A stretch of 64,000 bases of DNA, taken from contig CAJINV010000012.1 in assembly GCA_905178155.1 (NCBI GenBank), positions 615,271-679,270 of the forward strand. Direction: 5' to 3'. The DNA comes from Amoebophrya sp. A120 (lineage: Eukaryota; Protista; Dinoflagellata). This document shows positions 1 through 64,000 of the stretch, in pieces. The notes under the pieces were generated by a model, which saw nothing but the letters and a program-made list of their open reading frames with translations, was not told the origin of the DNA and did no database searches. A program made the position numbers and the translations under genes. The first letter of the stretch is position 1; each line of letters begins with the position of its first letter.

Positions 1-3000
1 GTTGTAAATCTCATTCGTACCGGCCAAATTTTGCTGGAACTTGGGGAAATTTACCGCGGCCCGATTAGGATTTCGTGCCGTCCGCGTGGCGCTGCCCGAT
101 GGCCGGGTGGAAATCGCGAAACTGTGGTTGGACTGGTGAAAGTTTTCCCCGCTGGCGGCCTTTTGACGAGCAGAGGGAATAGCACCAGTCATCGAGTTCT
201 TGCTGGATGGTGCAGCAGAAGTCGTGAAAGCGATGGTAGACGCCACGACAGGTGCTGGGCGACGCTCTTCCTGCTCGCGGTCTGCACTATGTTCGTGTAT
301 TCCACCACCAGTCGCGGCAGAAGAAGTTGCAGCACTTTCATCCTTCAGCAAACTCGCCGCAGCCGTGGCGAGAAAAGAGTCGTTTCTGGCTGCCGGCGCG
401 GTTTTTGTGAACTTCTGTGAGGAAAACAAGTTCTGCTTGTTGAAAATCGCAGGCATCTTGTCCACCACGCCGGGTTCGTCACGGTGATTTGCGGCTGCAT
501 CAACGCAACTTTCTCCGTCAACAGTAGCCACAAGTTCTTGCGCCCGATCTTGAACCAAGTCGGAGGTCAGGAGAGGAAGAGTCGCTCTTATTCCTCCTGG
601 AAGATCACCCTGAAGATGAACATGTGCCTGCCTCTCGTTTTGCACCACAGCGCTCGTGGTCGTCCCGCTCGTTTTGCAATCCACCACATTCACACCACTG
701 CCGTGTTCGATCTCAGGCAACAAGATACCGGAACACACTGGCTCTGCGCCAGTGGGTATCAAATGTAAAAATGTCTGGGTCTGGAAGATTTCGAGATTTG
801 TCATGCCTATTTGCCATGATCGATGATGTCTGTGATGCATGCCGTAGCATCACAGATTTTTGGAGCGCTTTGTGATACCTCTACCGCATGAGAAATGCCT
901 TCTCCGCGTAGCACAAACTGGAGTCCTCTTGCTGTTCATGCAATACAAATTTTTTCAGAATCCACAGACAGCATCACAAGTTTACAATGTTCCAGACCCA
1001 GACATTTTTGCATTTGATAGCGGGCTGGCTGTGATCTTCCGCTTGTGAGTATGTTGTTGCGTCTTTTCCTCTATCACCTTGATTTATTTCCGAATCTGTT
1101 TTAGTATTCCCTCCTGGCGGTTGTCCAACAGCAACTCCGTTGCTGGCATTCGAAAACGATTTGTTCAGATTCAGCTTCTATCAAGTGTAAAAATGTCTGG
1201 GTCTGGAAACTTGTGATGCCGGGCGGCGTCTCATGATGAGGCTACAAATGCTGGCTCAGCATGACAAGTTTCTGAGCTCCTAGGTGTTGCCTATTCTGCA
1301 TGACAAACTGCGCTTCTGCATCACAGAAAAGCGCAGCTCTTGGGGAACGTGCATGACAGATTTAAGAGCCATGCCAGACAAGCATGACAAACATGAATTC
1401 TTCCAGACCCAGACATTTTTACAGTTGATAGCTTCGTGTTGGAGCTCGCACGCAAACTCGAGCTGCAACGGTTGAGGAAGCTGCTGAACATCCCTGCTAT
1501 GCGGTTGCTGCTGCGATTCAAAGTCGGCATTGGCGGTTGTTGCTGCTCGGAGGAACTGCCTTCTGCCGATTCTACTTCTTCTTCGCAGCTGCTGTTATCG
1601 GCTCGTTCACAGGCGGCCTGCTTGTTCCCGTTCTCTACCATGAAGTCAGGCGGCGATTCCGGGCTGCTGACAGTCTGGGCATTCATCTCAGGAAAATCCT
1701 GCTGACAGTGCCCCTTGCAGCTCAAATCCGTGTTTTTTTCGTCACAGCTGCTCGACCCGCTTTCTTCGCCTAGTTGGGTCGAACTGGAGCTAGCACCGCT
1801 CATGAACCGCAGGAAAGAAAAAGACGAGCTCATCTTGTGCCGCGGAATCGTCGGGCTCGGGGATCCGGACGTTTGCGGCCGAACTAAAGTGGTGCCCAGA
1901 ATGTTCTTTAACGGCGTGGGAGTGGTGGTTCCACGGCTGTTGGGCCGGAGAAGCTGGAGGTCTGGTGGTTGGAAGTTGTTGTGTGGGCGGTTGTTAAGGT
2001 CGACGTAGGGAGCAGTAGTAGTCGTGTGTTCTTCTTGTTGATGTTCCGCAGCTGCACTACTTCCGATTTGGTTCAGGAAAAGGGCGGAGTTCATATCTCC
2101 TGGAGACGAAATGTTGCCAACAGTGGCATGATCTCTATTCCCAACGCTGTTCACCGCCGCAGCCGCTGCGTTCGCCACAGACGCAGATGCCCAGGGGGTC
2201 AAGGGGCTGGGAAGCATAATTTGCTGCTTTCTGGCGTAGTTCTTCGCACCGTCTGCAGAGCTGCTGCCAGTGCTTGGATTGTTGCCTTCATGGCTGTTGA
2301 TTTCCCCGGGAAGTTGCATCTGCTGCACGCCGATTGGCGTCACCGGTATAATCCTGTTCGCGAGGACAGGCGGGGAGGCAACGGATAAAACGGAGTTCGC
2401 AGCTCCGTTTGTAGTGCTCGGCCCGCCCGGTGGTCCAGTACAAATTGCGCCTCCACCACCACAGCTCCCAATCGGTGGCGGCGTCCCGTTTGGAATGTGG
2501 ATTGCGTCGGTTTGGATGGGACTTGAACCCGCGGCACTGGTTATCGGAAGTTGCTGCTGTTGTTGGTGGACAACAGCCGGCAAGACCATCGGTGCAGAAT
2601 CAGCAGGAGCAGCCGCATATGAACTGCAAAAGCATCGCACTCGTATAAATACATTACAAATATCCTCAGCATGAGAAATAAAGTTTGTAATGCGGATTTG
2701 CCTGAAGAACTTCTTGAGGAAAATCCGCATCACAGATTCCATTTCCAACGCTTGCAGAAATGGAATCTGTAATGCGGATTTGCCTGAAGAACAAGATTTG
2801 TAATGCATGATTGCAATACGAGTACGATACTTTTGCACAGGATACCGCAGTATCCGTGACCTGCGCCTTGTCCCAGCCACTGACTGCGGCTTCGAGACTG
2901 TTGTTGATGAGATTGTTGCAGTGCAGCACTGCAACAATCTCCTGTTGTTATCAAAAGAAAAAAGTTCGTCGCGATCACTCATGGGCATTTTTGCAATACA

Positions 3001-6000
3001 AAATTGTCTGTCATGCGTAAAAATGCATCACAGCCACACTTCATAAGGGATTTCCCTAGTGTTTCTGCAATACAAGGAGAAGTTGCGATGCTAAAAAAAT
3101 TTGTAATGCAAAACCTGCAACTTAGTGACTGTGACAAACTTTTTTCTCTCCATAGTTGTTGCTCTACTTGTACTATCCCAGGCGTTGTCGCACAAGCCGG
3201 CGCACAAGCCGCTACCGTCGCAACAGAAGACGCTGGTGTGTGAACCTGGGACAATAGTGGCAGCTCGTCACAAACCGTTTTTGGTGTGAAAATTGTCGTG
3301 TCCGCCGGATTGCTCAGCATCCTGCTGTTCTGCTGCTGCAACTGGGAATTGTAGTGCACACCACGTGAAGATGAAAACACATTCCCGAGACTGTAGTTGT
3401 TTCCAGTTCCACTTATTGCACCATTCGCACCGATAATATCCGGGAGAGGCGTTCTTGTCGGCTTTGAATTATTTCCCCCATGGACATCAACGACAAACTG
3501 CCCGTTTGGCGTCACGATGGTTTCCGCTTGCTGATCTTGTAAAAAATTGCCGTCACAATCCTCCATATTTATCGCGATGGGCGACGGTCGAGGTTTCAAT
3601 CTCTTCCGATGATCGTTCGCCCTACCGGCGCTACCCGGGTTCGGGGTTTTCGAGGATCCAATGAAAGTGGCCGTCATGTCACTTTTCGCCAAAATGTCTC
3701 CCTCTGCCTCCGTCGCTGCGTGAAGACCCTGCTGCTCCCCCTCGTGGTTTGATTCTAGATCAAAGAACTCATTTTCCTGTTCAATCTCCATTCCGTCATT
3801 CACGGTCAAGCCGCTGAAGGTTCGGTGTGATCTGCAAGTCATCACGTCTTCGGACTTTTCGAAGTTGTTAGACATCAAACCTCCGCCGTTTTTTATCATT
3901 TTCAAAGACGTCGACCGTAAATGGTTTTCCAAGTCCCGACTCAGGCCACTTTGACTGCTGTTGCCGCCCCCGCTGATTTCGTGAAGATGTTGGTGATTTT
4001 ATGACAGTGCACAACTCCCCCTCCCCTTTATTTGAATGGCATAAGCAGCAACACAACGAGCTCCGCATGAAAAATCTGCACACGGATTTTTGTAGTACTG
4101 TTTGAGGCTCCAAAATTTGTGATGCAAACTATGCTCAGAGGCAAGATGTGGACTGAGTATTTTGCATTTACAAATGAGGGAGAGGGACAGGGGGAGTTGT
4201 GCACTCTCATAGATTTTCACCACTTCCCATTTCCACTTCCACCGCCGATTTCAAAAAATCGTCCAGCGCATTCGCCAAGTCCGGCGTTTGTGTATTAAAA
4301 AGCAAAACCTGCTCCTGTGACCCATCCACTTCAACGTCCAATGGACTACTAGGCGGGATCCGCTTCTTCCGCTTAGAAGGTGCCGCGGTGGACAGTTTCC
4401 CCCGGTCGGCACTATTCGGCGGATGAGGTGCGGGTAAAATTTGGCTGTGCGCGGTGAGGTTGACATCGTGAGCACTGATATCCGCATCGAGCGAGCCCGT
4501 GTTCGTACCCGTTCCGCCGGCGGAATTTACCGTCTTTGCGTCGTCATCGACATTTGAGGAACCACTTCCACCATACTCGGAATTGTTTTCTTGAAAGTAC
4601 ATTTGGTAGAGCTTCTGTTCCTCCAGTTGTTTTTGGTGTTTCTCCTCCTCCTCCTTCTCTATGTAGTAAAAAAGCTGCTTCCACTCCGCAATGTCATCCG
4701 CGCTGGGGTGGAGCGGGTTCGCTGTTGCTGTGCCTGCGGCTCCATGCTCTACGTCGTGAAGATGGTGGTGATGCTGAGCCGCAGTGGTCATGCTACCGTT
4801 TTGATGAAAATTTGAATCACTCTGGCCTTGTTGCGTCTCCCCTCCTCCTGCTCCTCCACCAGGATGTTGTTGAGCAGCTGCTAGTACACCATCCGGTCCT
4901 ACCGAAGGCCCAACGCCAGCAGGCGGCTGCAACCTCGCAGACCTTGGGTGGCTTGGATTCGCACCAGTTTGTCCCCGCAGGTACACCTGGCGCAACGTGT
5001 TGCCGTGCGAGTGCGGGTTAGAAGAGGTGTGCTGTTGCGGAACAAGAACATTTTGAACAGGACCTCCTACGCCAAGCTGTTGCAGACTCCCGGCGGCCGC
5101 GCCCGGCTTGTTCGCAACGACCCTGTTCGGCGATTGCGACGCCGATGCCGCAGAACGGGTACGCGGGAAGTGGTTTTGTGGTTGGGTATTTTGTACCTGT
5201 TGTGCTTGCGGCGGCGCCGGGTTCGTCGAAGAGGTCGCTGGGTTGGTGCCAACCACAATGCCACTCACCACCAGACAGCCGTTGAGGTCAGAAGCTTGCT
5301 GCTGCTGCTGCTGGTGCTGCTGTAGCTCTCCCGGTGTTGGGTCTGCATTGCAGCTGTTGACAACTACTCCCAGGGGCTGAAGCAGGAACGGGGGTGGGGG
5401 AATTACAGTGTTGGCTGATGTAGTTGCGCTATTAGAAGTTGTGCTGGTACCTGGTGGTACAACGGCTCCTATTTCTGATTGATCTCCCACTTGATCCACC
5501 CCACCTGCGACTGTAATCATCGGACTACTTGTTTTGCTGGCAGTAATGTTCGCTCCAGCCGCCGCCGCTGCCCACGGAGCATTCATGGACACATCTTTTC
5601 TGAATTGTTCGAAGTCACCTTTGCTCTCTTTATTCCCTTGATCATGATGCCCGGAAGTTTTTGTAGCCCCTGCTTCTACTTCTGCACGTTGATTCTTCTG
5701 TGTCTGTCCGTTCGATGCCGTGCTGGACGTTCTCTCCAGCATGGAGTTCGAGGAAGACAGCTTCCGGTGTGCTGTCAAATGTGCTGGAAGTGGAGCCCCA
5801 AGCTGCTGCCCACCGAGTTGCTGCGAGGCACTGTGTTGATTATTCGCCAATACAGCTGCATTGTTCCCGTGTTGGTGCTCGACAGCCCCCGTGCCGCCGC
5901 GCAGGCCATTCGTACTCGGCGGTCGTATTATCCCGCTTGGTGTCAGGCTCGTGCCGCTGTGCCTTCTTGTAGGCCTTTGGGGCGTCCGGGGTAACACTTG

Positions 6001-8181
6001 GTTGTTGACCAAATTGATCTGCATGTTGCAAGACCCCGTTTGCTGGTGGTGGTTTTGATGTTGGCCATTGTTCACACTGTAGCTCATGATCCCGTTGTTG
6101 TGATGCTGATGCTGCATCAGAGCTCCGGTGCTAGCAGCGATGTGCTGGACTCTTGGCGTCGTTAAGGAAGACGTGGTGATCATGCAATTCTGCGCGTAGC
6201 TGTTGATCTGGTGATATTGATCACCGTTCATGCCGCCACTTCCTGAAATGGAACTACCACCGCCTGCGTTACTTCCGTAGAAGTAGCTCTGCACTTGCGG
6301 TAGTCTCTCCAGCACGTGCTTCGCACTGGGCCGGTGGGCCGGGTTGGGCTGCAACATAGAGCTGATCAGCATCGAGAGCACAGAGTTGTAGTGATAAGCG
6401 ATCGCGTTGTTGCCGATAGTACCCGGCGCGCTGCTGTTGGAGTTGTTGTTTGTGCTGCTTCCGCCACTCGTCGTCCCAGAGGAATTTGACGCGGTTCCGC
6501 TGCTCACACTGTTGACTACATTATTCAGCACATTTTCGATTTTCGGAGGTCCCCGGTACACTTGCCGACAAATCTCCACCAGATTCCGCCCGTCAAACGG
6601 GGGTTTCGTCGTGCACACTTCGAAGATGCAACACCCGAGGGAGAAAATGTCGATCTTGTTACTGTAGCTCTTGTTGCTCCAGACCTCCGGGGCGGCGTAG
6701 ACTGGTGAGCCGACGTTCGTATTCGCCATTCCCCGGGTTGACTTCAACATTCGACACACCCCGAAATCCGCCAGGTACACCTGTTTCTGGTCGTGGGACA
6801 GGAGAATGTTGGAGGGCTTGATGTCCCGATGGAGAATGGAGAGAGAATATCAAGCAAAAAAGTGTTAACGTTAATGGTTTTGGGGCATTGCAGTCATGCG
6901 TGACAGATTTTCGCTATCATGCATGCTATGCAATACAAATTTGGGCATCATTTATCGTGCATTCCTGCATGCCAAATTCCGTTAACGTTACCACTTTTTA
7001 GTGTGATAGAGAATGGATGTGGGAGAGCGCCTCAAGTAACTGCTTGAACCACGAAGCGACTTTCCGCTCTGGGATCGGCTTTTTGCAGTTTCTGTTCCTG
7101 CGCTCGTTCATATGACAGTGCACAACTCCCCCTCCCCCTCATTTGTCATGCAAAGTGCCTAGTTTACGCCTTGGCTCTTGGCAATGTTTGCATGACAAGT
7201 TCTGGCAGCCCAAATAGCACTACACTCCTGTCCAAATTTGTCATGCAAAACCTGTACTCTTACTGACGCTTGTATTGCTGTTCATGCAATACGAATGAGG
7301 GGGAGGGGGAGTTGTGCTTGTGCACTCTCATAGTTCAAGAAGAGGTTCAGGTCGCCGCCGTCGATGTACTGTGGAATTTGTCATGCGAAACGTGGAACAA
7401 AGTAAAGGGATGTGATGGCACAAGCACTATCTAGTAGATATAAAAAAGCGCATGAGTGACAGACTTGCAAGCCGGTATGAAAATAAAACTATCAGGACTG
7501 AAGTAGTACCTGCAGCAGCAGAAATATCGTGTAGTTTGTCACTTGGACCCAGTAGCACCGTACGATGTTGGGGTGTTGGATTTTCTGCAGAATCGACCCT
7601 TCCTCCAGCGTATGAAATGCAAAAGCATCGTACTAGTATGAATTGCAATACAAATTGACTTATAGCACTACGAAATAAAATTTGTAATGCTCTTTTACCT
7701 TGGCAAAGAGATTTGTCATGCATAACAGCCATGAATTACTACGAGTACGATACTTTTGCAGAGCATAAAGCGCCAGGTCCTTGTGTTTCTCTGATTGTAG
7801 ATCCGAAAAACAATATTGTTTCAATGCGTACTGCTTCTTCCGGCCATTTTGAATCAAATCCACTTGACCGAAGGCGCCCCGGCCAAGCGACTTGATGGTC
7901 TGGAAGCGGTCTGGGGGTGGGGGTGGGGGGTTTGCAACTGCGTGATCCACTGAAGCAGCTGCAGCTGCTTCTGAAAGTTGGTGGTGGTGCTGGGCCGGAG
8001 GCCGAGGCTGTTGGGGACTGCTGGCGCCATTATTTGTGGTCAACATGATCTCAGGGTCAGGTCGTTGTGCAGCACCGGCTCCCGGCTGTTGTAGATCTCG
8101 GGCGCTTGTTGTTTCGAAAGGACTTGCGGCACCAGAGGTTCTTGAGGACGAGGGTGGATGTACAACTTCGGTGAAGGTCAT
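1..8181 (-). CDS. NEK/NIMA-like Ser/Thr protein kinase with very long low-complexity C-terminal tail; spliced, 3' end runs off the window start
   Basis: After removing 8 introners and 1 GT-AG intron the kinase motifs join in frame: LGRGAFGQV, YALKQ, LQKIQHPNIV, LLQ|YIDGGDL, ILHRDIKPSNILL, LADFG, VGSPVYAAPEVW, DIFSLGC. The frame stays open to position 1. Confidence 0.9.
757..1019. mobile_element. introner family A (TIR TATCAAATGTAAAAATGTCTGGGTCTGGAA), interior type A2
   Basis: TIRs; TSD gtggg/gcggg; removal restores the frame. Confidence 0.9.
1179..1430. mobile_element. introner family A, interior A3
   Basis: TIRs; TSD gcttc/gcttc; similar to 55925-56176. Confidence 0.92.
2618..2844. mobile_element. 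introner family B (TIR TATxxxxTGCAAAAGTATCGTACTCGTA) with an extra internal hairpin
   Basis: TIRs; TSD ccgca/ccgca. Confidence 0.92.
2949..3154. mobile_element. introner family C (TATC..AAAAAAGTTCGTCxCGATCACT)
   Basis: Imperfect TIRs; TSD gttgt/gttgt; near-identical copies at 55539 and 60004. Confidence 0.92.
4000..4211. mobile_element. introner family D (TATGAxAGTGCACAACTCCCCCTCCCC)
   Basis: TIRs; TSD gattt/gattt. Confidence 0.92.
6848..7008. mobile_element. introner family E (TATC..AAAAAGTGTTAACGTTAA)
   Basis: TIRs; TSD gagaa/gagaa; lies just upstream of the kinase HRD motif. Confidence 0.9.
7111..7332. mobile_element. introner family D
   Basis: TIRs; TSD gttca/gttca. Confidence 0.92.
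7369..7509 (-). other. canonical GT-AG intron in the kinase gene
   Basis: cag|GTACTA...CCACAG|tac joins LLLQ to YIDGGDL. Confidence 0.85.
7611..7767. mobile_element. introner family B
   Basis: TIRs; TSD cagcg/aagcg. Confidence 0.9.
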
Positions 8182-8909: not shown

Positions 8910-11900
8910 TCAGACGTAGACTGTCGCGTCCATCTGCATGCAGAAGTCTTCAACTCGCGGAAAACAGTTTTCTCTCGGCACCACCAACTTGTTGTGGTGT
9001 ATCGTCAGGTACCCCTTCATCCCCCCGTAGCTTATCAGCTGGCTCAGCACCGTTTCGACCTCTGCAGCAGAGTCGTACTGGGCCGTGATATCCTCCGTTT
9101 GGACCTTCGTCGGGCACTCCGAGATCAAAAACTGTCGGAAGCAGGAAACGACCAAAGACAGGTCAATCTTCAGGGACTTCGGCGGCGCGGCGGGTTTGGG
9201 GTAGAGTTCGGGAAACTCAGTCTGCATCTGCGCCGTGCAGAGCTCGTGACACTTGATGATTCTGCGAATGAACTGCCGAGTCACAATGTGCTTCACTTGG
9301 GACATCAGATTCACGATACCTGGATAGTTTCACAATTCGGGGAAAGTTGTTTTTGCCTTGTAAGGAAGTAGTCAAGAAGAAGCATAGATACCACTAGCAA
9401 GGGACTGATGCTTTCTTGCAGTGTCGTGGGGGCTACAGCAACAGCAACACAATTACGACAGAACCATGTCAGAATCATGAATCAAACACCACGACAAGAA
9501 GAAATCATCTAAAAACTATACCAAGTTTGACAAAAACCAGTGTCTGGTCCTGGCTGGCCTTCTCGTATTTCACCAAATCCCCCGCTTTTATCGCGTTGAT
9601 GATCCGACCGAAAATTGCCTCCAGCTCGTACTTTTTCAAAAGAGCCTTCGACGGCAAATACCCTTTCCGTATCCTCAACGGGATCAAGAAATGCAGCATC
9701 TGCCTTTTCTGCTCGTAGTGGTCGTTTCGCGTCGCGCCAGAGATCAAGTTCATGGTGGATGAGGTTTGGGGAAGCTATGCACTGCAAAAGCATCGCATTC
9801 GTATAAATGGAAGTCTTGCATGACAGATCTGCTCTTTTCATCCCTGAAGCTGCATTACAAATTTCATTGTCGCTTTTGGAAAAATTTGCCATGTGATTTC
9901 TACTAAAGGCGATACTTGTGCAATGCATAAAAACATGTTGGAGTTGAAACTGTCCCGCATCAGCTGGCTGTAGCCCCAGGAAATTTTCCGCTCCGCCTCA
10001 GCGTAATTGCCGGATTGGACCTGGAGACCAGTTTCGTTTGATTTCAACGCGCAAAACATCACAACATAACACACAGCGCTACTTCTCGTACTTTACAAGA
10101 TATCATGATACAACACCAGAGCTACTGTCTCCGCGTTTCGATTTTCATCAAAATGAACAGCTCCGATCGAAAATCAATAAAGGTAGAATAAACACCAAAA
10201 ACTTCTCAGTTTACCAGACAAACACCCCAGTAGTAACTGAGCGTGACACTGACAGCGGGAGGAACTCCGGCCGTTGGGAAGCCCGGTCCCATCCTCTTCA
10301 GGCTCTTGTATCCTGACTAAAACTGTTCCCACACCAGAGGCAAGATGGGAAATCTGCTAGACAAATCCACCAGCTTTGGTTGTTTCGCATGACATGTCTG
10401 TCCCCGTATTGTAATCCTGTTTAGCTAGTTCCGAAGCATCACAGATCTAGCCCAGCATGCTAATTCGAGCATCACAAATTCCACAACACGACTAGAAAAT
10501 GGCTCTCATGGGGCGTCGCATGAGACACTTTTTCGGCATGCAGATTTGCATGACAACTCTGGGGGGTGGGAACGTTTTTACTCAGAATATCTTGTCGCCC
10601 GGTTTTATGCCCATCTGCTGCAAATGCAGCTGCTCGAGCTGCTGCACGTTTCGCAAAATTTGCTCGACTAGCGACACCTGGAACATCGCGAGGCAGCACC
10701 GAACCAATTCTGTGGTCGTCGACAAAAACCCGGCGCGCTTCTGCTTCTCCCGGACCATCTCTCCGAAGATTTTTCGGAGGTGCTCAACCAGCTTGTTCAT
10801 GTTTTCATTGGTGTCCGTTGATTGGGAGTTGAAGTGTAAGTCGATGTTTTCCGCCTGCTCCCGGGCCCAGGCGAGAAGCACTTGGAAAGCCGGTATCATC
10901 CAGATGTGGTTCTCGTACTGGTCTCTGGTGTTGCAGTACAAGGTCGACCAGTCCCGGAGTGCGAGGTAGCAGTGTTCTGTTATTTGGAGGAAATTATAAA
11001 GGCCGCTTTTGCTACTTTTCAGTGAATACATACAACTAGTGAGGAGGCAACATCAACATCGGATCAAAAAAAGAAGACATTAGACAAACAACGCTTATTT
11101 CTAGATAAAAGCTAGCATCATAGTCTGTAGTACGCAAGCTCTCGCACATCAGTGGTTTTGCCTTTGGGTTCAGACCGTAGTGCAGCGCCTCGCAGTAGAT
11201 CTTGACCATCTTCACGTAGTTTACGACAAAAGAGGACAACGGCTTTTTCATTTCTTTTGCGTCCTCGAAATTTTTCGAAAACGGGGACCCATCATGAAGT
11301 GCAAAAGTATCGTACTCGTAGCAGTTATCGCAATCGTGCATGACAAGTCTCTTCCTCAAGGCAAATCAGCATGACAGATTTCCTCTCTCATTCTGAGAAG
11401 ATTTGTATTGCAAGTACTACTAGTACGTCAATACTTTTGCAGTTCATACCCGTTCTGCGCGAACGAGAGCTGGTCAATTCCCCGCTGCACGCTTATGGAG
11501 TTCTCAACTGTTACATTCTCAACTGTTGCATGAATTTGTAATGCAAGAATGGGATGAAAAGTCAAAGAGGGGAGGTTGCACCTGTAGCATGACAAATATC
11601 TAGTTGCTGTTTAGCCTTTCGAAAATTTGTCATGCGAAGTAGCTTGACTGTGAGAATGTTGGCCGTCATTTTGCATGACAAATCATGTAACAGTTGAGAG
11701 TGTAACGTTTGAGAATCCCATAACGCTCGCTTCTATTGCCTCCTTCGTTTTTCCCCGGACCATTTGCTGCTTGTCCCCCCAGTCCGGGCCGCGGATGGAG
11801 ACACAAACCGCGAGCTCCTCACGGCGTTCCGCCGCCATGAGATTTGCGAAGTTGAAGGAAAACTGGGCAATTTCGTCCTGGTTCCGCTGGTTGTACATCA

Positions 11901-12051
11901 TGTTAGGGTTCCGCGTGTTGTATTTGTTGAGGGTTGGGTAGGGATGCGCTTTGTTCATGTTGTTTCGGTTGCCTCCCTTCCCACCGGACATACCGCCCCG
12001 GGGAAAGGAGGAGCTCGAGCTCCCGCCGGTCATCTGCTGCTGGCCCCACAT
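8910..12051 (-). CDS. PCID2: PCI-domain protein PCID2/Thp1/CSN12-like (TREX-2 subunit), about 582 aa spliced
   Basis: Motifs VTLSYYWG, KRQMLHFLIPLRIRKGYLPSKALLKKYEL and GGMKGYLTIHHNKLVVPRENCFP resemble PCID2. Removing 4 introners (+1 TSD each) and 3 GT-AG introns leaves 1749 nt, which is 583 codons. Confidence 0.85.
9320..9521 (-). other. canonical GT-AG intron (PCID2)
   Basis: g|GTATAG...TCCAG|gt joins VKLG to IVNLMSQ. Confidence 0.8.
9776..9929. mobile_element. introner family B, diverged
   Basis: Partial TIRs; TSD gaagc/aaaac; frame restored. Confidence 0.8.
10021..10214 (-). other. canonical GT-AG intron (PCID2)
   Basis: ctg|GTAAAC...TCCAG|gtc joins YYWGVCL to VQSGNYAEA. Confidence 0.8.
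10309..10589. mobile_element. introner family F (TATCCTGAGTAAAAACGTxCCCACxCC)
   Basis: TIRs; TSD tcttg/tcttg; inverted homolog of 19270-19548. Confidence 0.9.
10977..11133 (-). other. canonical GT-AG intron (PCID2)
   Basis: c|GTACTA...AACAG|aa keeps the frame. Confidence 0.7.
11293..11448. mobile_element. introner family B (left end CATG)
   Basis: TIRs; TSD cccat/cccgt. Confidence 0.85.
11494..11722. mobile_element. introner family G (TATGG..TTCTCAAxxGTTACATTCTCAACTGTT)
   Basis: TIRs; TSD acgct/acgct; homolog at 27009. Confidence 0.92.
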
Positions 12052-12128
12052 AGTGTTGTAGAAAGGATTTACTTACTTTCGTGTCGCTTAAGGTAGAGGG
12101 AAATTATGTGTCTCAGGCAATAAATTAA

Positions 12129-13150: not shown

Positions 13151-13515
13151 CTACGCGCCGGTGTTCATAATCAATGTGATGTTGTCCCCTTTCAGCAGGA
13201 TCTTCCCGACACTCCTGCGGCTCTGCTTCTTCACGTAGAACTCCTCTGCCTCGTCAAGCACGACATTCATGTACTCGTCGAATCCTGTTGTAAAAAAATC
13301 GTGTATTATTTCTCATGCGAGAGAACAAATAGAGCCAAGAACTGTCATGCATAGAACCAAAATATACATCCTATACCGACGATTTTCCCCTCCAATCGCA
13401 TGTCGGTTTGGTCGTACAGCCAAATCTGCACTTTATCCTTGTTCCTCAGATGTGTGAAGATCTGATTGATGGGCAGAGTCATCATCTTCTGCAACTTCTT
13501 GTTGGAGATCGCCAT
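13151..13515 (-). CDS. SNRPE: small nuclear ribonucleoprotein E (SmE), two exons
   Basis: Spliced translation [47 protein letters not shown]|[43 protein letters not shown] is a typical SmE. GT-AG intron at 13285-13376. Confidence 0.95.
13285..13376 (-). other. canonical GT-AG intron (SmE)
   Basis: g|GTATAG...AACAG|ga restores GFDEYMN. Confidence 0.92.
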
Positions 13516-54900: not shown

Positions 54901-57900
54901 CAATACAAATTCATGTACTTAATGTAGTTGCACTTGCACTGCTTGGGCGTTCGAAAATTGTCATGCATAATAGTGTCGCAAGGGAGCAAGCGAAATTGTG
55001 GATTTTGCATGAGAAATGAGAACGAGGGGCGGGAGTTGTTGTGCGCTGTCATATGTGGGAATTCGAGAGTTTCGTGACAGGGTCCATGACCGTTTCGAAT
55101 AGGTGCATGTCGTTCAAGTGCATGTACTCCAATTCGTTTCTGAGCAACGTGATCGCGCCGGCTAGGTTATCGAAAGGAAAAATCCCCCCTCCCCATATCG
55201 AAAACGAAAGTTGTGATGCTGTATTTGAGGTCACAAATCGACTTGTCATGCTAGAAGGCCAAGAGCCGCAGTTGTGGCCTCGTTTGCAGGCAATTTGTCA
55301 TGCTGTTTCCCACTCTCAGCTGCCTCCTATCATGCTGAAGATGCACGGCTTCCCAACGCCACCCAGCACTACAGTCCGCATTTTTTCCCGTATAGAATGA
55401 CAAAGCTGACTTGTGGCAACAAATCTGCATCACAGATTTCCGTTTTGATATGGGGAGGGAGGATTTTTCCGGTTGATATAGGTCCGCCCCGTTTTCCAAA
55501 TGGTGGAGAAGCAGAATGTCGAATCTGGACTGAAACAGTATCAAACAAAAAAAGTTCGTCACGATCACTCATGCGCATTTTTGCAATACAAAACTGTTTG
55601 TCATGCGCAAAAATGCATCGCAGCCAAACTTTATTAGGGATTTCCCTAGTGTTTCTGCAATACAAGGAAAATTTGTGATGCTAAGAAAATTTGTAATGCA
55701 AACCCTGCAAATTAGTGACTGTGATAAACTTTTTTCTCTCCATAAACAGTTCGTGAATCACGATCGTGTGGTTCTTCTGCGCGGATTTGTGCTGCTGTTT
55801 CAGAGTTCCCGATGCGGAGCTTGGGTGTAGTTGGGTCGCTGTATCCACTTTAAACGTCGCCTCTTGGGTCCACAGTCGATGCGGCTGCCGGTAAAACTCG
55901 TCCACGAACTCCCGTTTCATCCTGTATCAAATGCAAAAGTGTCTGGGTCTGCAAACGTGTAATGCTTGGCGGCGTCTCCTGATGAGGCCACAAGTGCTGG
56001 CTCAGCATGACAAGCTTCTGAGGTTCTAGGTGTCGCCTATTCTGCATGACAAACTACGTTGCTGCGTCACAGAAAAGTGGAGCTCTTGGGTAACGTGCAT
56101 GACAGATTTAAGAGTCATGCCAGACAAGCATGACAAAAATGCACTCTTCCAGACCCAGACATTTTTGCACTTGATATCCTACGCGCCTGCACGAAAGCCG
56201 CCCAGGCGTCCGCAAGGACCACCCCTTCCGACCGTTCGGTCAGGTGGCAGCAGGTGTCGGTGTAAACCTTATCCGGGTCGATGTGGATTATATTTGGTCG
56301 CTGCTCTTGGGCCGTTTCATCTAGTACATCTGATCCTTGTTGTCCAGTGAAAACTGCCGGCGCATCGCTTGTTTCCCTTTCCGTACCTGCTTCCGCGTGT
56401 ACTCGCCCCGGCAGATAGCAGTTTTCGTAAGTCTCTTCCACTAGATCCTCCTTCGCGAAGCCCAGGTAGCTCCAATGAGCCGACCGGAATTTGGACACAG
56501 ACAAGTCTCCGTAGTAGCTGACGGGGCGGTCGTTCGTGTACAGATAGTCTAAGCCCCGAAGTTGGAACTGTCGCTGGTTTTTGTCCACCTCAAGCTCATT
56601 CAGCATCGCAGTCAAAGCTTGGTGCTCGGAGGTGAAAGAAATGGCTGCCTCCACAGTTGATTCTTCTGACCCGTGATTTGTGCGACTTGCTTGTGCTACT
56701 TCCCCTGTTGCAGCTGGAGGTAAAAACTCAACAGTCGGAAACAGCTTGGACTTCCGATCCCGTTTTGAAATCGTTTTGCCAGATCGTAGAATCGTCACCT
56801 CGTCCTTTTCCGTTTTCGAACTGGAGATGAGCAGTGTCGAGGAAGGGAACGTTTTCTCATCGTTTTCAGGATCATCATCATCGTCGCCTACAGCTTCCTG
56901 CTGAGCACCACTCGCTTTGAGTTCCAGATCGGCTTCTGATGTGTCCTGCGTGCTATCAGCCCCAACTCCTTTCTTTCCAGCTTTCTCTACTTTGTTCGCG
57001 TTCGCAGCGTCCAATGCCTGCTTCCAGCGTTTTCTCTCGTCCTCCAGAAACTTTGCGTGTTTCTCCATCTCGGATAGAGACACACCCGGGTACAGTTGCT
57101 CAAATTGTTTCTGCCGCGGCGATTTGGATTTGTCTTGCTCAGAACTAGAGCTGCTGCCGGTCGTGCCTTCTGCTTCTGCTGGAGAAGTTGCAGACGACCC
57201 ACTCGTACTATCTTCCTCATCCACAGCCCGCACCGCGGACACACACCTCTGAAACCCGATATTCCTTCGCACTCGCGCGATGTGCGACAACGTCGCGAAA
57301 ATGGGCTTTAAAATTTGCGGATGGACGCCGTGAACCAAATCGAAGCGGACGGAGGTCATCATCATGATGGTGAACAGATCGCGTTTATCACCTGCAAATA
57401 TGTCTGGGTCTGGAAGAGTGGAATGTTTGTCATGCAAATTCTGCATGACTCTCGACGTCTGTGATGCACGCCCTAGCATCACAGATTTTGTGAGGGGGGC
57501 TTCCTCCTGATAGTGAGGCCTGTAAGTACCGCATGAGAAATGCCCTCTCGCCGTCGCAAAAACTGGACCTATTTTGCTGCTCATGCAATACAGATTTATC
57601 TAGAATCCAAATCCAGCATCACAAGTTGCATCCTTCCAGACCCAGGAGACATATTTGCAATGCATAGTGTTGGACTCTTTTGAACAAATAGTTCACATCT
57701 TGGTCGTACAACTTCCCCTCGATGGACCGGTGCGTCTGAATCCGCCAGCCGAGCGCCTGCGGGTCGGAGAAGTGGGATAGGAGGTTCAACAAGTTTTTTA
57801 ACACGTTGTAGCAGAAGTTCTGGTGGAGGGGTTTGTGGGTCTGCATGGTCACCGCGTGGAGCGATTCCCGTTGTTTCAAAAATTTCTTCCACTTGTGAAA

Positions 57901-58635
57901 CGATTTGGTTTTCTTGTTAATATTCCGCGTCGTGATGGAAGAGGAGGTGGTTAGCTGGGCGGAGGAGGAGACTGGATCGGACGTGTCTTCCGGGTCTGGG
58001 TCCTCGGAGGTGGATGTTGTGGGAGGCCGCGGCTGTGATGTTCCAGCAGGTGGACCACCTCCTGCTGTTTCTATTCCCATTTTTGGCGTCTGGTCGAACA
58101 GCCCGTCTGTACCAGTTGGAGAGGATTCCTCACCGCAACAGTCTCTTTTCATCTCCCTCTCGGCCGCTTTATCCACGTAGGACATTTCAAACGTTTTCAC
58201 GTACATAAATTCCCCATCCACCGCGTGGCCCTGGCTCGTGCCATCGTCGTATTCTTCGAGAAGTATCCTCGCATTGTTTTTCTTCAGCAACTTGTTCGCC
58301 AGCTTCTGCTTCTCCTCAAACACCTCCGCTTTCTGAAAAATCTGCTCATATGCGTCCCACTGCAACGGAAATGCGTCGAAGTTCGGGTAGGCTTTGGGTT
58401 TGTCCAGAAAGGAGAAAAGCGGCTGGGATACCCACCAGTCGATCAGGGAAACGCAGGGGCGGTCCACCGGGAGAACGTCCTTCCACTTGTAGTTGGTTTT
58501 CAATTTGGTGGTGGGACTCGTGGATGATGAACTTGCGTCTGCGGAAGCGGAAACCGGTGTGGCAGTCGGCAAAAAAATTGCCAGGAAGGAAAGCAACGGA
58601 ACAACGACTATCACAAGACGAAAGCCGCGCATCAT
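51971..58635 (-). CDS. secreted/membrane protein with FkbM-like SAM-dependent methyltransferase domain, about 1397 aa spliced
   Basis: Signal peptide MMRGFRLVIVVVPLLSFLAIFLPTA. Motif I LFLEIGGFFGDC and IKVSGTEDAVIRGMKETL (cf. FkbM IDVEGxExxVLxG). Span minus 10 introners and TSDs is 4194 nt, which is 1398 codons. Confidence 0.7.
52167..52484. mobile_element. introner family K (TATC....GGAAAAATCCxCCCTCCCCATA)
   Basis: TIRs; TSD cggac/cggac; close homolog at 55168. Confidence 0.93.
53024..53203. mobile_element. introner family B, diverged
   Basis: TIRs; TSD actgc/actgc. Confidence 0.88.
53270..53442. mobile_element. introner family E
   Basis: TIRs; TSD atgca/atgca; homolog of 6848-7008. Confidence 0.9.
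53825..53973. mobile_element. introner family B
   Basis: TIRs; TSD gtatc/gtatc. Confidence 0.93.
54016..54329. mobile_element. introner family J (opposite orientation)
   Basis: TIRs; TSD ttctt/ttcat. Confidence 0.9.
54817..55053. mobile_element. introner family D
   Basis: TIRs; TSD tgtgg/tgtgg. Confidence 0.9.
55168..55478. mobile_element. introner family K
   Basis: TIRs; TSD taggt/taggt. Confidence 0.93.
55539..55744. mobile_element. introner family C
   Basis: TIRs; TSD aacag/aacag. Confidence 0.93.
55925..56176. mobile_element. introner family A, interior A3
   Basis: TIRs; TSD tcctg/tccta. Confidence 0.92.
57386..57666. mobile_element. introner family A, interior A2
   Basis: TIRs; TSD gcgtt/gtgtt. 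Confidence 0.9.
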
Positions 58636-59408
58636 CTTCCTCGTTGTGGGTAAACGCTGACGCAAAAAAAGTTCTTCCCTGGTTGTAGCAGGAGGTAAAG
58701 TCTGTACAACTACACGACCTCGATAGAAGCGGAGGACCACCCGTGTTAGAGCTACGGATGCACGCATTGAGCTAGTATTTGCAACGAGGCCAGTGCTACA
58801 CACCAGGACGGAAGACAGGAAACTTACGAACACGAATGCGAAACAAGTCGTCCACACTTGGCCGCTTCATTACACCTGTATGACAGAAACACAAGAACAT
58901 GCGGCAAGGGGGTAGTTTCAGAAAGCTCATGCATCAAGACAGAGAGTTCTGATATTCAGGCTGTAAATAAGGCTTAGGCGCTTCTTGTTTGCTCGATTCA
59001 CAGATCAAAACTGTTGCTACGAATGGTCCCTTCAGCAAGTATTCTTCGTAAATATTGTTCGAGTTTAATACCAAGTTCATCACTACTTTCAACTTACGCG
59101 AACCACTCCTGCTCTTTTCGAAGTACCTGAAGAAGCATCTGCCCCTGTAGAAGCGGTATTCCAATTGTCCACACCCACCACCAGGAAATCTCTCAAGACA
59201 AAAATTTCAAAAACTGTACGGCTGTGGTCTTTCGTGCATCGATGCCATGCACGTGCACCTTGTCATCACCCCTGTTCCTATGATCCTTACGGCACCGCGG
59301 CTGGCTGAAGATGACGCCGACAAAAACTGTATTCTCTTCGTTGGTGAATCGAGACACTAGTCAAACGTTGTTTCCATCATGGTATCACCTTGTTCCTGCT
59401 ATTCCTCA

Positions 59409-62400
59409 TCACACCTGAATCACCACAGTCGTGCCCCCAGGAGCAGGAGCCTGCGGCGGACCGGCAGAACCGTACTTGTTGTACCCCGATGTGGCACCAG
59501 TTGTTGCAGCTCCATAGTTGTTCATCTTCCCACCTCCAAAGCCGTCGCTCTTGCTGAGCGAGTCCAGTAAAAAGATCGTCTGTAATATGGGGGCGTCAGG
59601 ATCGAAATCGTCAAAGTTAAAATAATACGTTTGTCATGCATAAAATACAGCCCACAAAGTGCCTGTCTTGCAGAGTAGGTAAGTGAGGCAGATTGCAAGC
59701 CTGTTGAGGAGTAGAAACTGAGCTGCTAAAGTAGCATGAAAAAAGGCGTCTTCCTTATCCAAACAGCATGACAAACAACTGGATTGCGGTTCTACCCAGA
59801 TTTGTCATGCACCACTTAGAAACTAGGCGCCAACTGGTATCCGTTTTATGCATCACAGATTATCTCAACTCTGACGATTTCGATCCTGACACTCCCATAT
59901 GTAATTCCCGCGTGACGTCAATCAGATTCATGTGGTGCGACTGAATCAGTCCCTCCACACTGGTGGCAACGGCGTGAAAAACCAGTAACAGCAAGTACTG
60001 CAGTATCAAAGAAAAAAACAAGTTCGTCACGATCACTCATGCGCATTCTTGCAATGCAAAATTGTTTGTCATGCGTAAAAATGCATCACAGCCAAACTTC
60101 ATTAGGGATTTCCCTAGTGTTTCTGCAATACAAGGAAGGTTTGTGATGCTGAGAAAATTTGTAATGCAAAGCCTGCTAGTTAGTGACTGTGACAAACTTT
60201 TTTCTCTCCATATGCAGCGTGAACTGCCACCGGTGCGTGACGCCAAACACTTTCAAGACCAAAGCGTCGCTTTCCTGAGCAGGACCAAATGGATCACTTC
60301 CACGACCGTTGTGCCCAGCCCAAAAGTTGTAGTCGTAGTTCGTCTATGAAATGCAAAACCATCGCACCCACTCCCACTCGTACTAATTGCAATCATGCAT
60401 TACAAGTTTTTTCTAAAGGTCAATCCGCGTTTACAAATTTTATTTCTCATGCTGATGGAATTTGTCATGCATTTATACGAGTACGATACTTTTGCACAGG
60501 ATATCGCCCGATCGTCGTACTGCTTGGCCTATCAAATGCAAAAATGTCTGGGTCTGGAAGAATTCGCGATTTGTCATGCTGCTTTTCCATGACCCATGAG
60601 GTCTGGAATGCAGGACCTCGCATGACAGATTCTGCGAGACCTTTCTAATGCCTATCCTGCATGAGAAACTACCTCCCGACTTGGTCAAAACTGGACGACT
60701 TTTGGTAATCACGCAACACAGATTTTTGCATGCTGCAGATTTAGCATGACAAGTTGCAATCTTCCAGACCCAGACATTTTTACATTTGATATGGCCATGT
60801 TCAGGTACAGGTTGAAGCACACGAGAATATCGTGAGAAAAAAGTGTCACAGTTAGAGTTAAGTACACACTCTGATGCATAACCAGCAAGACAAGCAACCT
60901 CTATCATGCAGGAAAAAATGCTTGCCAGTCTCACGTTATGCCGGTTTTCCCTAGTAGTATGCGCATTACAAGTTTTCTTTGCCATACAGAACAACTTTGT
61001 GATGCTGAAATTACAACAAATGTGTAACTGTATACACTTTTTCCCTTGGATAGAGAAGGAACCCCATGTAGTAGGTCAAAAGAAGCGCAAACAGCAGAGA
61101 CATCACGGCCTTGCGCCGCCGCTGCGCGTTTGCGACGGATTGGTATTCATCGGTAGACGTGGTTTATGCATTTCAAAAGTATAATCGCCCACCTAGGAAA
61201 AATCGCATTACATATTGATTTACCCAACATGACAAATTGCACTTGTCATGCTGGTTTACCTGGAAATGCAGAATTGTTATGCATATCTGCAATTAGAATT
61301 AAAACAACTACGAGCGCGATACTTTTGCAGTTGATAGGGTTATATGAACTGCAAAAGTATCGCATTCGTATAAATGCATTACAAATTTCCTCAGCATGAG
61401 AAATAAAATCTGTAATGCTGATTTACCTCAAGAAAAAGATTTGTAATGCAGGTATCGCATTTATACGAGTACGATACTTTTGCACAGGATAGGTTACGTC
61501 GTCTTCGTGGACGGAAGCGGTGCAGGCCTGACAGTTGTAGTAAAGTTGTCATGCATGAATTTCATTTCAAAATTACGCTTCACGCAAAACAAGCATTACA
61601 AAAAGGCACTGTCTTGCATGAAAGCCACAAAACACTATACCGCAGACAGCAGGAAGAACGCGGCGCCACCCCCGCAGAGCAACGGCTATGCAATACAAAT
61701 TTCCCGCACATGTACAACATGCATCACAAATTTCACCAATTTGGAGCGTAAAACTTGTCATGCTAAATGAGGATCGAAGCCAAGTTTTGTCATGCAGATA
61801 CCGTATTTGTACGTCGTGTACGGGAGATTTAAAGTGGATAACGGCAAGAAGAAGTGCACGGCGAGCGAGTGCATGTACAGGTTGTAGAAAGTGATCACGA
61901 ACAGCATCAGTAAGCAGAAGATAAACAACCAAACACTCCAGGTTTGGAAGATGCTCTGCTCGCCAGATTCGCCGATAATTGCACTTCCATTTTTCGCGTT
62001 CGTGTTTCCCATCGTGGATCCAGCAGGCCAGCTATGATCAGAAAGAAGAGAATGAATTTTGTCAATTTCGAATGATAATCCTAGGTTGGAGATGACACAG
62101 GGCAACTCCAACGCGAGGGCTTCTATTAAATTTGTGATCATGTTGTATGGTAGACGCCTGCTCCACATTGAGCTAGGTAGATGCAAGTCGTTTTTCCTTT
62201 CTCATGTTAGCAAGATCTTGGTACTACGTACAAGCATGTATCGCTTCTCTTCCCATACAGCTGCGCTACCGCCCCGCCAGCAATGTACTCTTGTTGCTGT
62301 TGATTCACGGTTGCACCACCCGCTAATTTGCTTTTCTCTTCGAGCGATGAAATGTACTCTTCGGCCCCGTCTTTCCCAACCTTCGAACTGCTCGTGGTTA

Positions 62401-64000
62401 TCACCATACGGAGCAGGCAAACCGTATGCATTGCAAAAGTAAATCGTACTCGTGTAAATGCATTACAAATTTCCTCAGCGTAAAATTTGTAATGCGGATT
62501 TACCTTAAGAGCAAGGTTTGTAATGTATGTTTGCGATTACTACGAGTACGATACTTTTGCACAGGATAAACGGCATTCACGGTCGACACGAGGACGAGAA
62601 CCACGGTCGAAAAGTCGGATCAAATGCAAATGTGTATGGGTCTGGAAACTTGTGATGCTAGTTCGTGAATGGTAGGCAACCTCCGTTAAGGGGCCACGCA
62701 TGACAAGTTTCTGTGCAGCTACTTCTTGCATAACCTGCATGAGAAGCTGCGTTTTTGCATGACACAAAAGAGATGTTGGTATAGCACATCACGCATCACA
62801 GCTTTTGCTCTCCTGTGTGCCAAGCATGACAAATCTCGCAATCGCAATCTTCCAGACCCAGACATATTTGCATTTGATAAGTCGAAAAGTAAGTCCAATT
62901 TGTCGAGTCTGGGCTGGTGTTGAACAAAACTTCCGCTATTCTGCTGCTGATGCTGATGTCCTCTGTTCCTGTTCCCCCCACCGCCACCGATCCGGTCGTG
63001 CGTCGCGCTCTGCCAGTTGATCCGACCACCGTTATTTTGATGATTTCCACCGCCTGGCGTCGGAGCCGGGTGTTGATGATTTGCGCTGCGCAGCCCCATG
63101 AACACCCGGAGGGACTCGCCGTTGTGGTGAAACACCGCGTTCAAAGCCGTGAAGAAAACGAAAAAGGTTTGGAAGAAAAGGAAAAAAACCGTCACCCAGA
63201 GGCCGACCTGGTTCAGGGTGCGAGAAGTGTAGACCAGCGGGGAGGGGTCGATCACGGTCTTTAGATCTGATGTGTGTTTTTTTTTTTTACGTGAGTAACT
63301 GAACTGTTCTTACACGGACGAAGATGTTGTGCCGCAGCATCCGATGATCTTTGAAGGAGGAGGATATCATGCTCATCAACATCATTTTCATCGTACATAA
63401 AAATATACTACCTGAAACTGACTGCAACACTGGGCCCTTGATATTCTGTCCGCCACCGCCCCCCTTCAAATTTGCGGCACGGCTCGTCATCTCGGTTCCA
63501 TTTCCGTTGGCCACCAAGCCGCCCAGCTGCTCCGCGAGCGTCTTCCCAAAATTCGGCATGGCGACCCGCAAGATACAGGTAAAAACACACCAGAGGAGGA
63601 GCAAGACACACCCGACGACGAGAAAAACCGTCGTGAGAGTTTCCCGTGCAGAGTGGGCGTCCAACACGCCGGATACAGCGCTGTTGTTCATCCCATGTTG
63701 ATGACTTCCGCTTGAAGGTGTTCCCCCTCCATAATTTACCGGCCAATTCTTGCTCACATACAAAACCGCCACGTTTCCGATCAGCAAACCCAGACAGACT
63801 ATCAAAGCGTAATTCAAGTGGTGCGCGCTATGGATGTGTCAGGTTTGAAATCGACAAAGTTGAAATAATTTGTCATGCATAAAATGGATACCAGTTGGGA
63901 GACCAATTTCCAAGCGGCGCATGACAAATTTTCCGAGCACCGAAGTCCAATTTGTCATGCTGTTTGGGCACAGAAGACTGCTTTTGTCATGCTCCTTTAG
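59409..64000 (-). CDS. multi-pass membrane protein, 5' end outside the window
   Basis: Several hydrophobic helices (YALIVCLGLLIGNVAVLYV, TVFLVVGCVLLLLWCVF, VWLFIFCLLMLFVITFY, SLLFALLLTYYMGFLLVCF, QYLLLLVFHAV). The frame from about 61520 to the stop at 59409 is restored by introner removal. Confidence 0.7.
59586..59899. mobile_element. introner family J
   Basis: TIRs; TSD tgtaa/tgtaa. Confidence 0.92.
60004..60212. mobile_element. introner family C
   Basis: TIRs; TSD tgcag/tgcag. Confidence 0.93.
60345..60503. mobile_element. introner family B
   Basis: TIRs; TSD tcgtc/tcgcc. Confidence 0.9.
60530..60791. mobile_element. introner family A, interior A1
   Basis: TIRs; TSD tggcc/tggcc. Confidence 0.93.
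60828..61052. mobile_element. introner family L (TATC...GAAAAAAGTGTxACAGTTA)
   Basis: TIRs; TSD gagaa/gagaa; frame restored (GFLL|VCFNL). Confidence 0.88.
61165..61336. mobile_element. introner family B, diverged
   Basis: TIRs; TSD tggtt/gggtt. Confidence 0.85.
61343..61491. mobile_element. introner family B
   Basis: TIRs; TSD ggtta/ggtta; only 6 nt from the previous element. Confidence 0.92.
61540..61800. other. intron rich in introner boxes but lacking paired TIRs (left boundary uncertain, 61528-61540)
   Basis: Many GCATNACA/TGTNATGC boxes; ends GATA at 61800; possible TSD ttgta/ccgta. Confidence 0.6.
62425..62567. mobile_element. introner family B
   Basis: TIRs; TSD approximately aaccg/aacgg (right end +/-1 nt). 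Confidence 0.88.
62618..62879. mobile_element. introner family A (left end GATC)
   Basis: TIRs; TSD agtcg/agtcg. Confidence 0.9.
63267..63411 (-). other. canonical GT-AG intron
   Basis: tca g|GTAGTA...CATCAG|at cta joins ORFs 63287-63817 and 62719-63255 in frame. Confidence 0.75.
63829..64000. mobile_element. introner family J, truncated by the window end
   Basis: Left TIR; interior is the reverse complement of the right part of 48857-49164. Confidence 0.9.

Follow-up and report, generated by a model that had tools for sequence, protein, structure and literature searches.

Transposon-like introns without GT-AG ends in Amoebophrya sp. A120: reading-frame support for precise removal and a proposed fixed cut position

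We analyzed a 64,000-nt stretch of the genome of the dinoflagellate Amoebophrya sp. A120 (assembly GCA_905178155.1, contig CAJINV010000012.1, positions 615,271 to 679,270 of the forward strand; hereafter the window), in which reading frames are interrupted by short elements with terminal inverted repeats (TIRs) starting with TAT. Judged by their sequence features, these elements are non-autonomous inverted-repeat transposons resembling miniature inverted-repeat transposable elements (MITEs), inserted into coding exons in either orientation with a 5-bp target site duplication (TSD). Reading frames and gene models support the precise removal of each element together with one copy of the repeat, without GT-AG splice sites. 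The elements are the introners that Farhat et al. 2021 described for A120 (PMC7789003), and the phenomenon is thus already known; an earlier note on this DNA had likewise stated that non-canonical introners with inverted and direct repeats (IR/DR) were reported in Amoebophrya. What we add is a proposed fixed register for the cut, with the intron running N-TAT[C/G]...[C/G]ATA-NNNN and its boundaries lying 1 nt ahead of TAT and 4 nt past ATA, together with a first T that is strand-specifically invariant.

The window was scanned for TAT...ATA pairs with complementary ends and for further family ends. The first scan gave 52 elements, from which 38570 was discarded for having no repeat, and eight were added by hand, resulting in 59 complete elements and one truncated by the window end at 63829, close to the approximately 55 of the earlier note. 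Five third-order Markov controls yielded 0, 0, 3, 0, and 0 pairs, none with a repeat matching in at least 4/5 positions. The elements cover 21.5% of the window and are 144 to 383 bp long; the range of 143 to 318 bp claimed previously holds for 57 of 59. Ends of the form TAT[CG]...[CG]ATA, described before as nearly universal, are indeed present on both sides of 53/59 elements, and an A-run lies ~7 nt after the TAT start of the inverted repeat (positions 11 to 14 mostly A). The approximately 12 TIR families claimed became nine multi-copy families and 12 singletons upon grouping, with identity of up to 96.9%. TIR, fixed-length TSD, short size, and high copy number are MITE traits that the elements display, and read depth over element bins rises up to about 10^5 as compared to about 45 on unique DNA. 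The elements had no match in viral contigs and no Rfam family. All 59 lie inside minus-strand reading frames and none (0/59) in the hand-marked non-coding part, which makes up ~24% of the non-element DNA (P about 8e-8), a coding-only placement that bears on target choice.

The window repeats match in 5/5 positions in 40 elements, 4/5 in 13, 3/5 in 4, and 2/5 in 2. Because this set had been chosen partly with a bonus for the repeat, the unbiased test came from a second assembly: a terminal-pattern scan of metagenome contigs returned at least 176 stretches, giving 173 loci (L001 to L173) from a single assembly, selected by an exact family-A end. These loci carry window families at up to 99% identity and have no exon sequence in common with the window. 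All counts that draw on this sample, here and below, are counts among the matches listed. Among 329 elements chosen without the repeat, it was perfect over 5 bp in 243 and matched in at least 4/5 positions in 295, and repeats of other lengths (2 to 4 and 6 to 9) showed chance identity. The target duplication is exactly 5 bp, as the earlier note had it. Both orientations relative to the host gene occur (family A 22/16, family B 11/9). Of 239 frame-assigned elements in the window and L001 to L173 together, 122 have a repeat beginning at a third codon position (p = 3e-8), equivalent to phase 0 at register 4 or 1 (defined below); a model of symmetric target preference, itself fitted to these data, gives an expected 42% of such starts versus 51% seen. 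In the comparison for empty orthologous sites, no L001 to L173 locus overlapped window exons. P0002, a kinase homolog not established as genomic, aligns gap-free across three kinase insertion sites.

Deletion of each element plus five bases produced frames of 4702, 1934, 1474, 781, and 204 codons over 15, 7, 10, 4, and 7 elements, respectively. For 40 of the 59 elements, length plus five outperformed the other frame classes; 5 of the remaining 19 are shown to follow it by the database models P0001 and P0051, and the other 14 are without direct support. These models skip elements by length plus five in 8/8 (P0001) and 4/4 (P0051) cases; the eight exons of P0051 map to the window, the model matches a window exon at 100% identity, and its sources name Amoebophrya sp. 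A120. The kinase motif HRDIK and the DPH6 motif DSWMYQTV were regained by the same removal, just as noted before. Likewise in the second assembly, reading continued for at least 80 codons on both sides in 150 of 388 elements, and +5 was the best class in 104 of these. GT/GC-AG ends were possible at only 4/59 window elements over all six registers, in line with the claim that no consistent GT/AG exists. At these loci, the basis for removal is reading frames and gene models, with no RNA junction read: raw RNA runs X9 to X11 gave 4, 2, and 0 reads on 44001-64000, none across a junction. Removal from pre-mRNA, as proposed in the earlier note, is nevertheless published for A120 on the basis of RNA sequencing; that paper reports more than 60% of introns as non-canonical, with validation by RNA sequencing, A120 inverted repeats starting with TAT, and gene models that were built from transcript alignments (PMC7789003). 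As side observations, four X9 reads at 60792 join a family-A end to a flank absent from 44001-64000, and runs X3 to X5, guessed to be RNA, contain 0.55 of the words of 6400-8200 as compared to an exon-only share of 0.53, which is not evidence.

We define the register as the count of upstream repeat bases kept; at register 4, the mRNA retains upstream bases 1 to 4 and downstream base 5. Because a perfect repeat hides the register, it is readable only at mismatched repeats. At junction 757, P0001 reads Pro-Ala, giving a register of at least 4, and at junction 9776, P0051 reads Met-Phe-Pro, giving register 2 to 4. Register 4 is the sole fixed value fitting both. At both junctions, a different register would have offered a GC or GT donor, which the models bypass; aligner preference is therefore no explanation. 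The mismatched junctions 7611 and 11293 in the same models are synonymous, an adaptin junction fits a register of at least 1 weakly, P0052 ends ahead of any junction, and the ECH and DPH6 structure alignments end before the junction residue. A Met at the DPH6 junction, which we presume to be conserved, would favor a register of at least 4. All five ordinary introns of the window start with GTA, and in 56 predicted GTA-donor introns (GTA being imposed by the finder) the +4 base is T in 31 and C in 14. At register 4 only, the U-A-U of the elements would fall at donor positions +2 to +4 and so match the G-U-A-U/C of ordinary introns. Each of the nine commonest non-canonical sites reads NT-xx in A120, and in A25 the commonest sites read TT-xx throughout (PMC7789003); Table S4 of that paper is compatible with register 4, not proof of it.

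The sense 5′ end behaves as a sequence signal. Strands were assigned by a codon model trained on the window, which on the window itself was right in 40 cases, wrong in none, and left 4 unassigned; window elements were set to minus in the count of 274 strand-assigned elements. The first T showed no change at the sense 5′ end and nine at the mirror 3′ A (two-sided p about 0.004, hand calculation), and 5′ versus mirror 3′ changes numbered 2 versus 4 at position 2 and 4 versus 1 at position 3. Three of the four 5′ changes at position 3 are to C, the second commonest +4 base of the predicted GTA-donor introns. Over TIR positions 1 to 3, changes that keep a wobble pair (8) are about matched by A-C mismatches (7), and therefore pairing alone does not explain the pattern. 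The repeat itself is nearly free in sequence, with position 5 being G in 83, A in 71, T in 61, and C in 59 elements, and only 29 of 274 register-4 introns would end in AG. The idea that end-pairing is read instead of dinucleotides is only half supported: 144 of 145 predicted folds have paired ends, as expected of any inverted repeat, but pairing has no independent signature beyond these folds: over the whole repeat, no RNA-strand signature was found (G-U 135 versus A-C 119, p = 0.17), and the invariant 5′ T points to sequence reading.

The elements of the window, with the minus strand as the sense strand, are as follows.
757..1019, minus, family A (~260 bp), repeat 4/5; gene model retains upstream base 4 (register at least 4)
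1179..1430, minus, family A, repeat 5/5
2618..2844, minus, family B (~150 bp type), repeat 5/5
2949..3154, minus, family G, repeat 5/5
4000..4211, minus, family E, repeat 5/5
6848..7008, minus, family I, repeat 5/5; directly ahead of the kinase HRDIK
7111..7332, minus, family E, repeat 5/5
7611..7767, minus, family B, repeat 4/5; mismatch synonymous, protein uninformative
9776..9929, minus, family B, repeat 3/5; register 2 to 4 set by gene model
10309..10589, minus, family C, repeat 5/5
11293..11448, minus, family B, repeat 4/5; sense 3′ end ATG not ATA, mismatch synonymous
11494..11722, minus, family F, repeat 5/5
17060..17321, minus, family A, repeat 5/5; 96.9% identity to 60530, opposite orientation
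19270..19548, minus, family C, repeat 5/5
19610..19762, minus, family B, repeat 5/5
20544..20822, minus, family C, repeat 5/5
20873..21017, minus, family B, repeat 5/5
21133..21399, minus, family A, repeat 3/5
21461..21610, minus, family B, repeat 5/5
24248..24472, minus, family E, repeat 5/5
25202..25469, minus, family A, repeat 5/5
26652..26956, minus, family D, repeat 5/5
27009..27243, minus, family F, repeat 5/5
28493..28730, minus, family A, in DPH6 domain, repeat 3/5
29136..29284, minus, family B, interrupts DSWMYQTV, repeat 5/5
29412..29663, minus, family A, repeat 5/5
30998..31259, minus, family A, repeat 4/5
36032..36301, minus, singleton, repeat 5/5
40306..40521, minus, singleton in the window, repeat 5/5
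40654..41036, minus, doubtful decayed element, repeat 2/5
42347..42604, minus, decayed element, repeat 2/5; sense 3′ end ACA
42834..43189, minus, singleton, repeat 4/5
43269..43453, minus, singleton, repeat 5/5
44023..44290, minus, singleton, repeat 3/5
46992..47207, minus, singleton, repeat 4/5
47652..47941, minus, singleton in the window, repeat 5/5
48113..48414, minus, element, repeat 4/5; reads GT-AG at register 4, frame undecided between +4 and +5, sense 3′ end ATG
48534..48795, minus, family A, repeat 5/5
48857..49164, minus, family D, repeat 5/5
52167..52484, minus, family H, repeat 5/5
53024..53203, minus, family B, repeat 5/5
53270..53442, minus, family I, repeat 5/5
53825..53973, minus, family B, repeat 5/5
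54016..54329, minus, family D, repeat 4/5
54817..55053, minus, family E, repeat 5/5
55168..55478, minus, family H, repeat 5/5
55539..55744, minus, family G, repeat 5/5
55925..56176, minus, family A, repeat 4/5
57386..57666, minus, family A, repeat 4/5
59586..59899, minus, family D, repeat 5/5
60004..60212, minus, family G, repeat 5/5
60345..60503, minus, family B, repeat 4/5
60530..60791, minus, family A, repeat 5/5
60828..61052, minus, singleton in the window, repeat 5/5
61165..61336, minus, family B, repeat 4/5; next element 6 nt away
61343..61491, minus, family B, repeat 5/5, overlapping the repeat of 61165; net 1-nt exon left
61687..61840, minus, singleton in the window, repeat 5/5; boundaries uncertain
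62425..62568, minus, family B, repeat 4/5
62618..62879, minus, family A, repeat 5/5; sense 3′ end ATC
63829..64000, minus, element truncated by the window end

In the pair 61165/61343, one element was probably inserted into the duplication of the other; the 204-codon frame passes through both. At 48113-48414, removal of length plus four would join two frames, and removal of length plus five retains the downstream frame only; an unseen intron or gene boundary in 48415-48533 is a possible alternative.

The host genes and ordinary introns are as follows.
1..8181, minus, protein kinase, model P0001; 8 elements, 1 GT-AG intron, extends past the window
8913..12051, minus, PCID2-like, model P0051; 4 elements, 3 GT-AG introns
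14562..32211, minus, 4702-codon frame with DPH6 domain; 15 elements removed
51974..58866, minus, 1474-codon frame, no family assigned; 10 elements removed
7369..7509, minus, ordinary GT-AG intron, donor GTACTA
9320..9521, minus, ordinary GT-AG intron, donor GTATAG
10021..10214, minus, ordinary GT-AG intron, donor GTAAAC
10977..11133, minus, ordinary GT-AG intron, donor GTACTA
13285..13376, minus, putative ordinary GT-AG intron in the Sm/LSM gene, donor GTATAG; hand-read from the sequence

The kinase, DPH6, and PCID2 identities of the earlier note are supported; its FkbM gene was not, either by Pfam/NCBIfam with three exon pieces or by an open reading frame scan. In the 4702-codon frame, the DPH6 domain lies at about residues 730 to 1050, and there are long low-complexity stretches; the frame may encode one giant protein or represent fused genes. 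The Sm/LSM gene at 13154-13515, which we take to be probably SmE, has an ordinary intron with two copies of the GCATNA[C/G]A motif treated below. All host genes found are on the minus strand, which fits the unidirectional clusters reported for the genus. The exon at 41326-42345 returned no homolog. Short direct repeats at 12131-12255 and 33870-34040, seen by eye, are intergenic and unrelated to the elements.

The elements, 13.8 kb in all, contain 188 copies of GCATNA[C/G]A, as compared to 20 copies in the 50 kb outside them, and the motif is present in 2/5 of the ordinary window introns. As a branch point, the motif was rejected for lack of sense bias: within 55 nt of the 3′ end of 145 elements, we counted 69 sense versus 77 antisense copies. 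In elements overall the numbers were 234 versus 273 and in the 56 predicted GT-AG introns 21 versus 16. A subterminal repeat is the better interpretation of the motif, and the GCATGACA repeats would be a candidate transposase-binding site. The elements may be mobilized in trans by an integrase-related (Ginger-like) transposase binding these subterminal repeats, which are common to the families. The mobilizing enzyme, called unresolved before, is not wholly so: A120 family 38, whose TSD is 5 bp and whose termini are TA/TA, has already been listed under Ginger (PMC12130899, supplement file 8). No transposase-bearing copy was found among the 130 family-A ends examined, which speaks against this model; 22 of these ends have no partner within 500 bp, and the longest partner with a 5/5 repeat is 834 bp away, open reading frames in such spans being unchecked. 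Longer family-A end spans were seen at L035 (834 bp), L071 (631 bp), L025 (768 bp), and L008 (558 bp), two with perfect repeats; they may be nested insertions or longer elements.

How the elements are removed is best accounted for, with a chance that we put slightly above even, by a modified U2-type spliceosome that lacks U1, reads U-A-Y at +2 to +4, and lets the hairpin place the 3′ cut. Because the first T is strand-specifically invariant, the 5′ end looks like a relaxed donor (N-U-A-Y versus G-U-A-Y), and this donor-like end favors a modified spliceosome over pure end-pairing. The inverted repeat would supply the donor positions +2 to +4 (U-A-U) on whichever strand is transcribed, and the hairpin would carry the 3′ end into the active site, with distance determining the 3′ cut. 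The hairpin could thereby replace the contacts at G(+1)/G(−1) and at AG that are known from spliceosome structures. The resulting geometry, NNNN|N...NNNN|N, would be that of the classic AG|G duplication, freed of any sequence requirement. A120 retains U2, U4, U5, and U6 and 83/89 spliceosomal proteins, U1 was not found, and IR/DR are present in 15% of its canonical introns (PMC7789003). Four predicted GT-AG introns of the second assembly (L019:2636, L032:2772, L045:5274, and L054:2906) resemble decayed elements, which suggests that introners may convert into ordinary introns. For a more radical version, in which the spliceosome dispenses entirely with U1, G(+1), and the AG acceptor and its reading is limited to U(+2)-A-Y and a 3′ cut measured by the hairpin, we would go somewhat below even. 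If true, it would give a sequence-free intron code, NNNN|N-TAT...ATA-NNNN|N, and one transposon superfamily could enter coding DNA at any position and on either strand, leaving the protein unchanged.

Several points weigh against register 4 and the spliceosomal reading. Register 4 is derived from a pair of junctions in the database models P0001 and P0051, the former of undocumented construction; mutation polarity of the repeat copies, used as a register test, gave likelihood ratios near zero. The asymmetry pooled over positions 1 to 3 is not significant (13 versus 6, p = 0.17), and of the nine changes at the 3′ A, six give a U-G wobble and three a true mismatch. Ordinary spliceosomes tolerate a change at +2 (GC-AG) more than at +1, the reverse of the T pattern. 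One candidate branch-point motif failed, degenerate branch points not having been searched, and the spliceosomal step is itself an inference. In published data, splice sites are called variable relative to the hairpin (PMC7789003), and large A120 families have about 26% GT and about 26% AG (40/58 A120 rows; PMC12130899, supplement file 8); register 1, or tie-breaking by the aligner, would account for the published site tables just as well.

A possible, though rather unlikely, alternative is that a non-spliceosomal, structure-reading endonuclease cuts at fixed distances from the terminal stem and, with a ligase, releases a circle or linear RNA, which corresponds to the interpretation in the earlier note. 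The near-universal pairing of the ends in predicted folds, the failure to find a branch point, and that to detect U1 (PMC7789003) all agree with it; the invariant T could equally be a nuclease determinant, and the MITE-like introns of Euglena need paired motifs at fixed spacing, with non-spliceosomal factors suggested (PMC12501133). It is opposed by the sense strand, which has no excess of G-U over A-C, and by a 5′ end matching the genome's own donor at +2 to +4. Moreover, the decayed elements among predicted GT-AG introns and the canonical introns with IR/DR together suggest one continuous system, whereas hybrid introns are rare in Euglena (PMC12501133). Improbable, in our judgment, is spliceosomal removal with an unfixed cut sliding inside the 5-bp repeat, where most registers yield the same mRNA. 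The variable sites of PMC7789003, the mixed registers in the annotated family tables (PMC12130899), and the number of junctions constraining the register here, only two, would suit it, whereas each gene model gives a single outcome, both fitting register 4, and the constraint on the T, being strand-specific, suggests that the 5′ cut is anchored.

The earlier note also allowed for removal from DNA, and excision at some life stage, as for the internal eliminated sequences of ciliates, would resemble the present case in its TA-like end with one repeat retained. We regard it as very improbable: DNA-like contigs of run X1 span 44001-47678, including two elements, at depth 43.5 without difference, exon-exon joints were 0/15 among the joints listed (of 855), and elements are in place in the second assembly too, although the X1 depth and the second assembly leave room for a minor or stage-specific excised fraction. 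Scarcely credible is that ribosomes hop over the hairpin between matching codons, with spliced cDNA as a template-switch artifact of reverse transcriptase. A hairpin with a short direct repeat is a known setting for both events, and a 5-nt repeat always duplicates one in-frame codon. However, the 55 repeat mismatches in frame-assigned elements comprise 17 amino acid–changing, 12 synonymous, and 26 outside the duplicated codon; matching codons are therefore not protected, and one frame would need fifteen hops.

The modified-spliceosome reading is a refinement of the A120 system rather than a new phenomenon. The window elements resemble the published introners in organism, TAT-starting inverted repeats, and the 5-bp repeats of the Fig. 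S19 legend, with no difference in kind; the published non-canonical introns average about 240 nt, and introner repeats make up 17% of the A120 assembly as compared to 21.5% of the window (PMC7789003). That paper gives repeats of 3 to 5 nt and variable sites, whereas we find exactly 5 bp and propose a fixed register and donor-like T; its main text contains no branch-point or lariat analysis. In the openly available literature searched, including PMC9860276, PMC12005148, and PMC12787238, we found no statement of a fixed register or donor-like T, parts of which the Fig. 3 logos and Figs. S19 to S25 of Farhat et al. may show. The proposed fixed register with a strand-specifically invariant T is a testable refinement of a known system. 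For the recognition of tens of thousands of such introns, these two features lead to concrete tests: named mismatch sites, predicted mRNA bases, and U6 and Prp8 contacts. If true, the proposal would show how far spliceosome rules relax and how a transposon becomes harmless in any exon. A120 family 38 and the other TIR introners (Gozashti et al. 2025, PMC12130899) are, like the window elements, TIR DNA elements. As published, family 38 is about 810 bp long, with open reading frames similar to Copia/Gypsy and without homology to known Gingers; the window elements are 144 to 383 bp long.

Other lineages offer partial parallels. The nonconventional introns of Euglena (Nomura et al. 2025, PMC12501133) are likewise MITE-like, have paired ends, lack GT-AG, and form the majority of the genome's introns. 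Their code, N3CDG...CH'GN5-6|R, places paired motifs inset from both ends, whereas TAT/ATA in the window lie 1 and 4 nt from the proposed cuts, with a donor-like 5′ end; positions +4 to +6 at register 4 are T[C/G]N by eye, as compared to CDG. Fritillaria borealis (bioRxiv 10.1101/2025.08.15.670264; PMC11282704) has non-GT-AG introns of likely MITE origin and a modified spliceosome, a precedent for the mechanism that we prefer. It differs in its preferred AG-AC and AG-AT ends and duplicated U2AF, whereas +1 and the last two bases are free in the window. The introners of Micromonas and Aureococcus (PMC11282704, PMC9860276) are also MITEs whose duplication supplies the splice boundary and leaves the protein unchanged, as here; their canonical splice sites constrain the target sequence, which those of the window elements do not.

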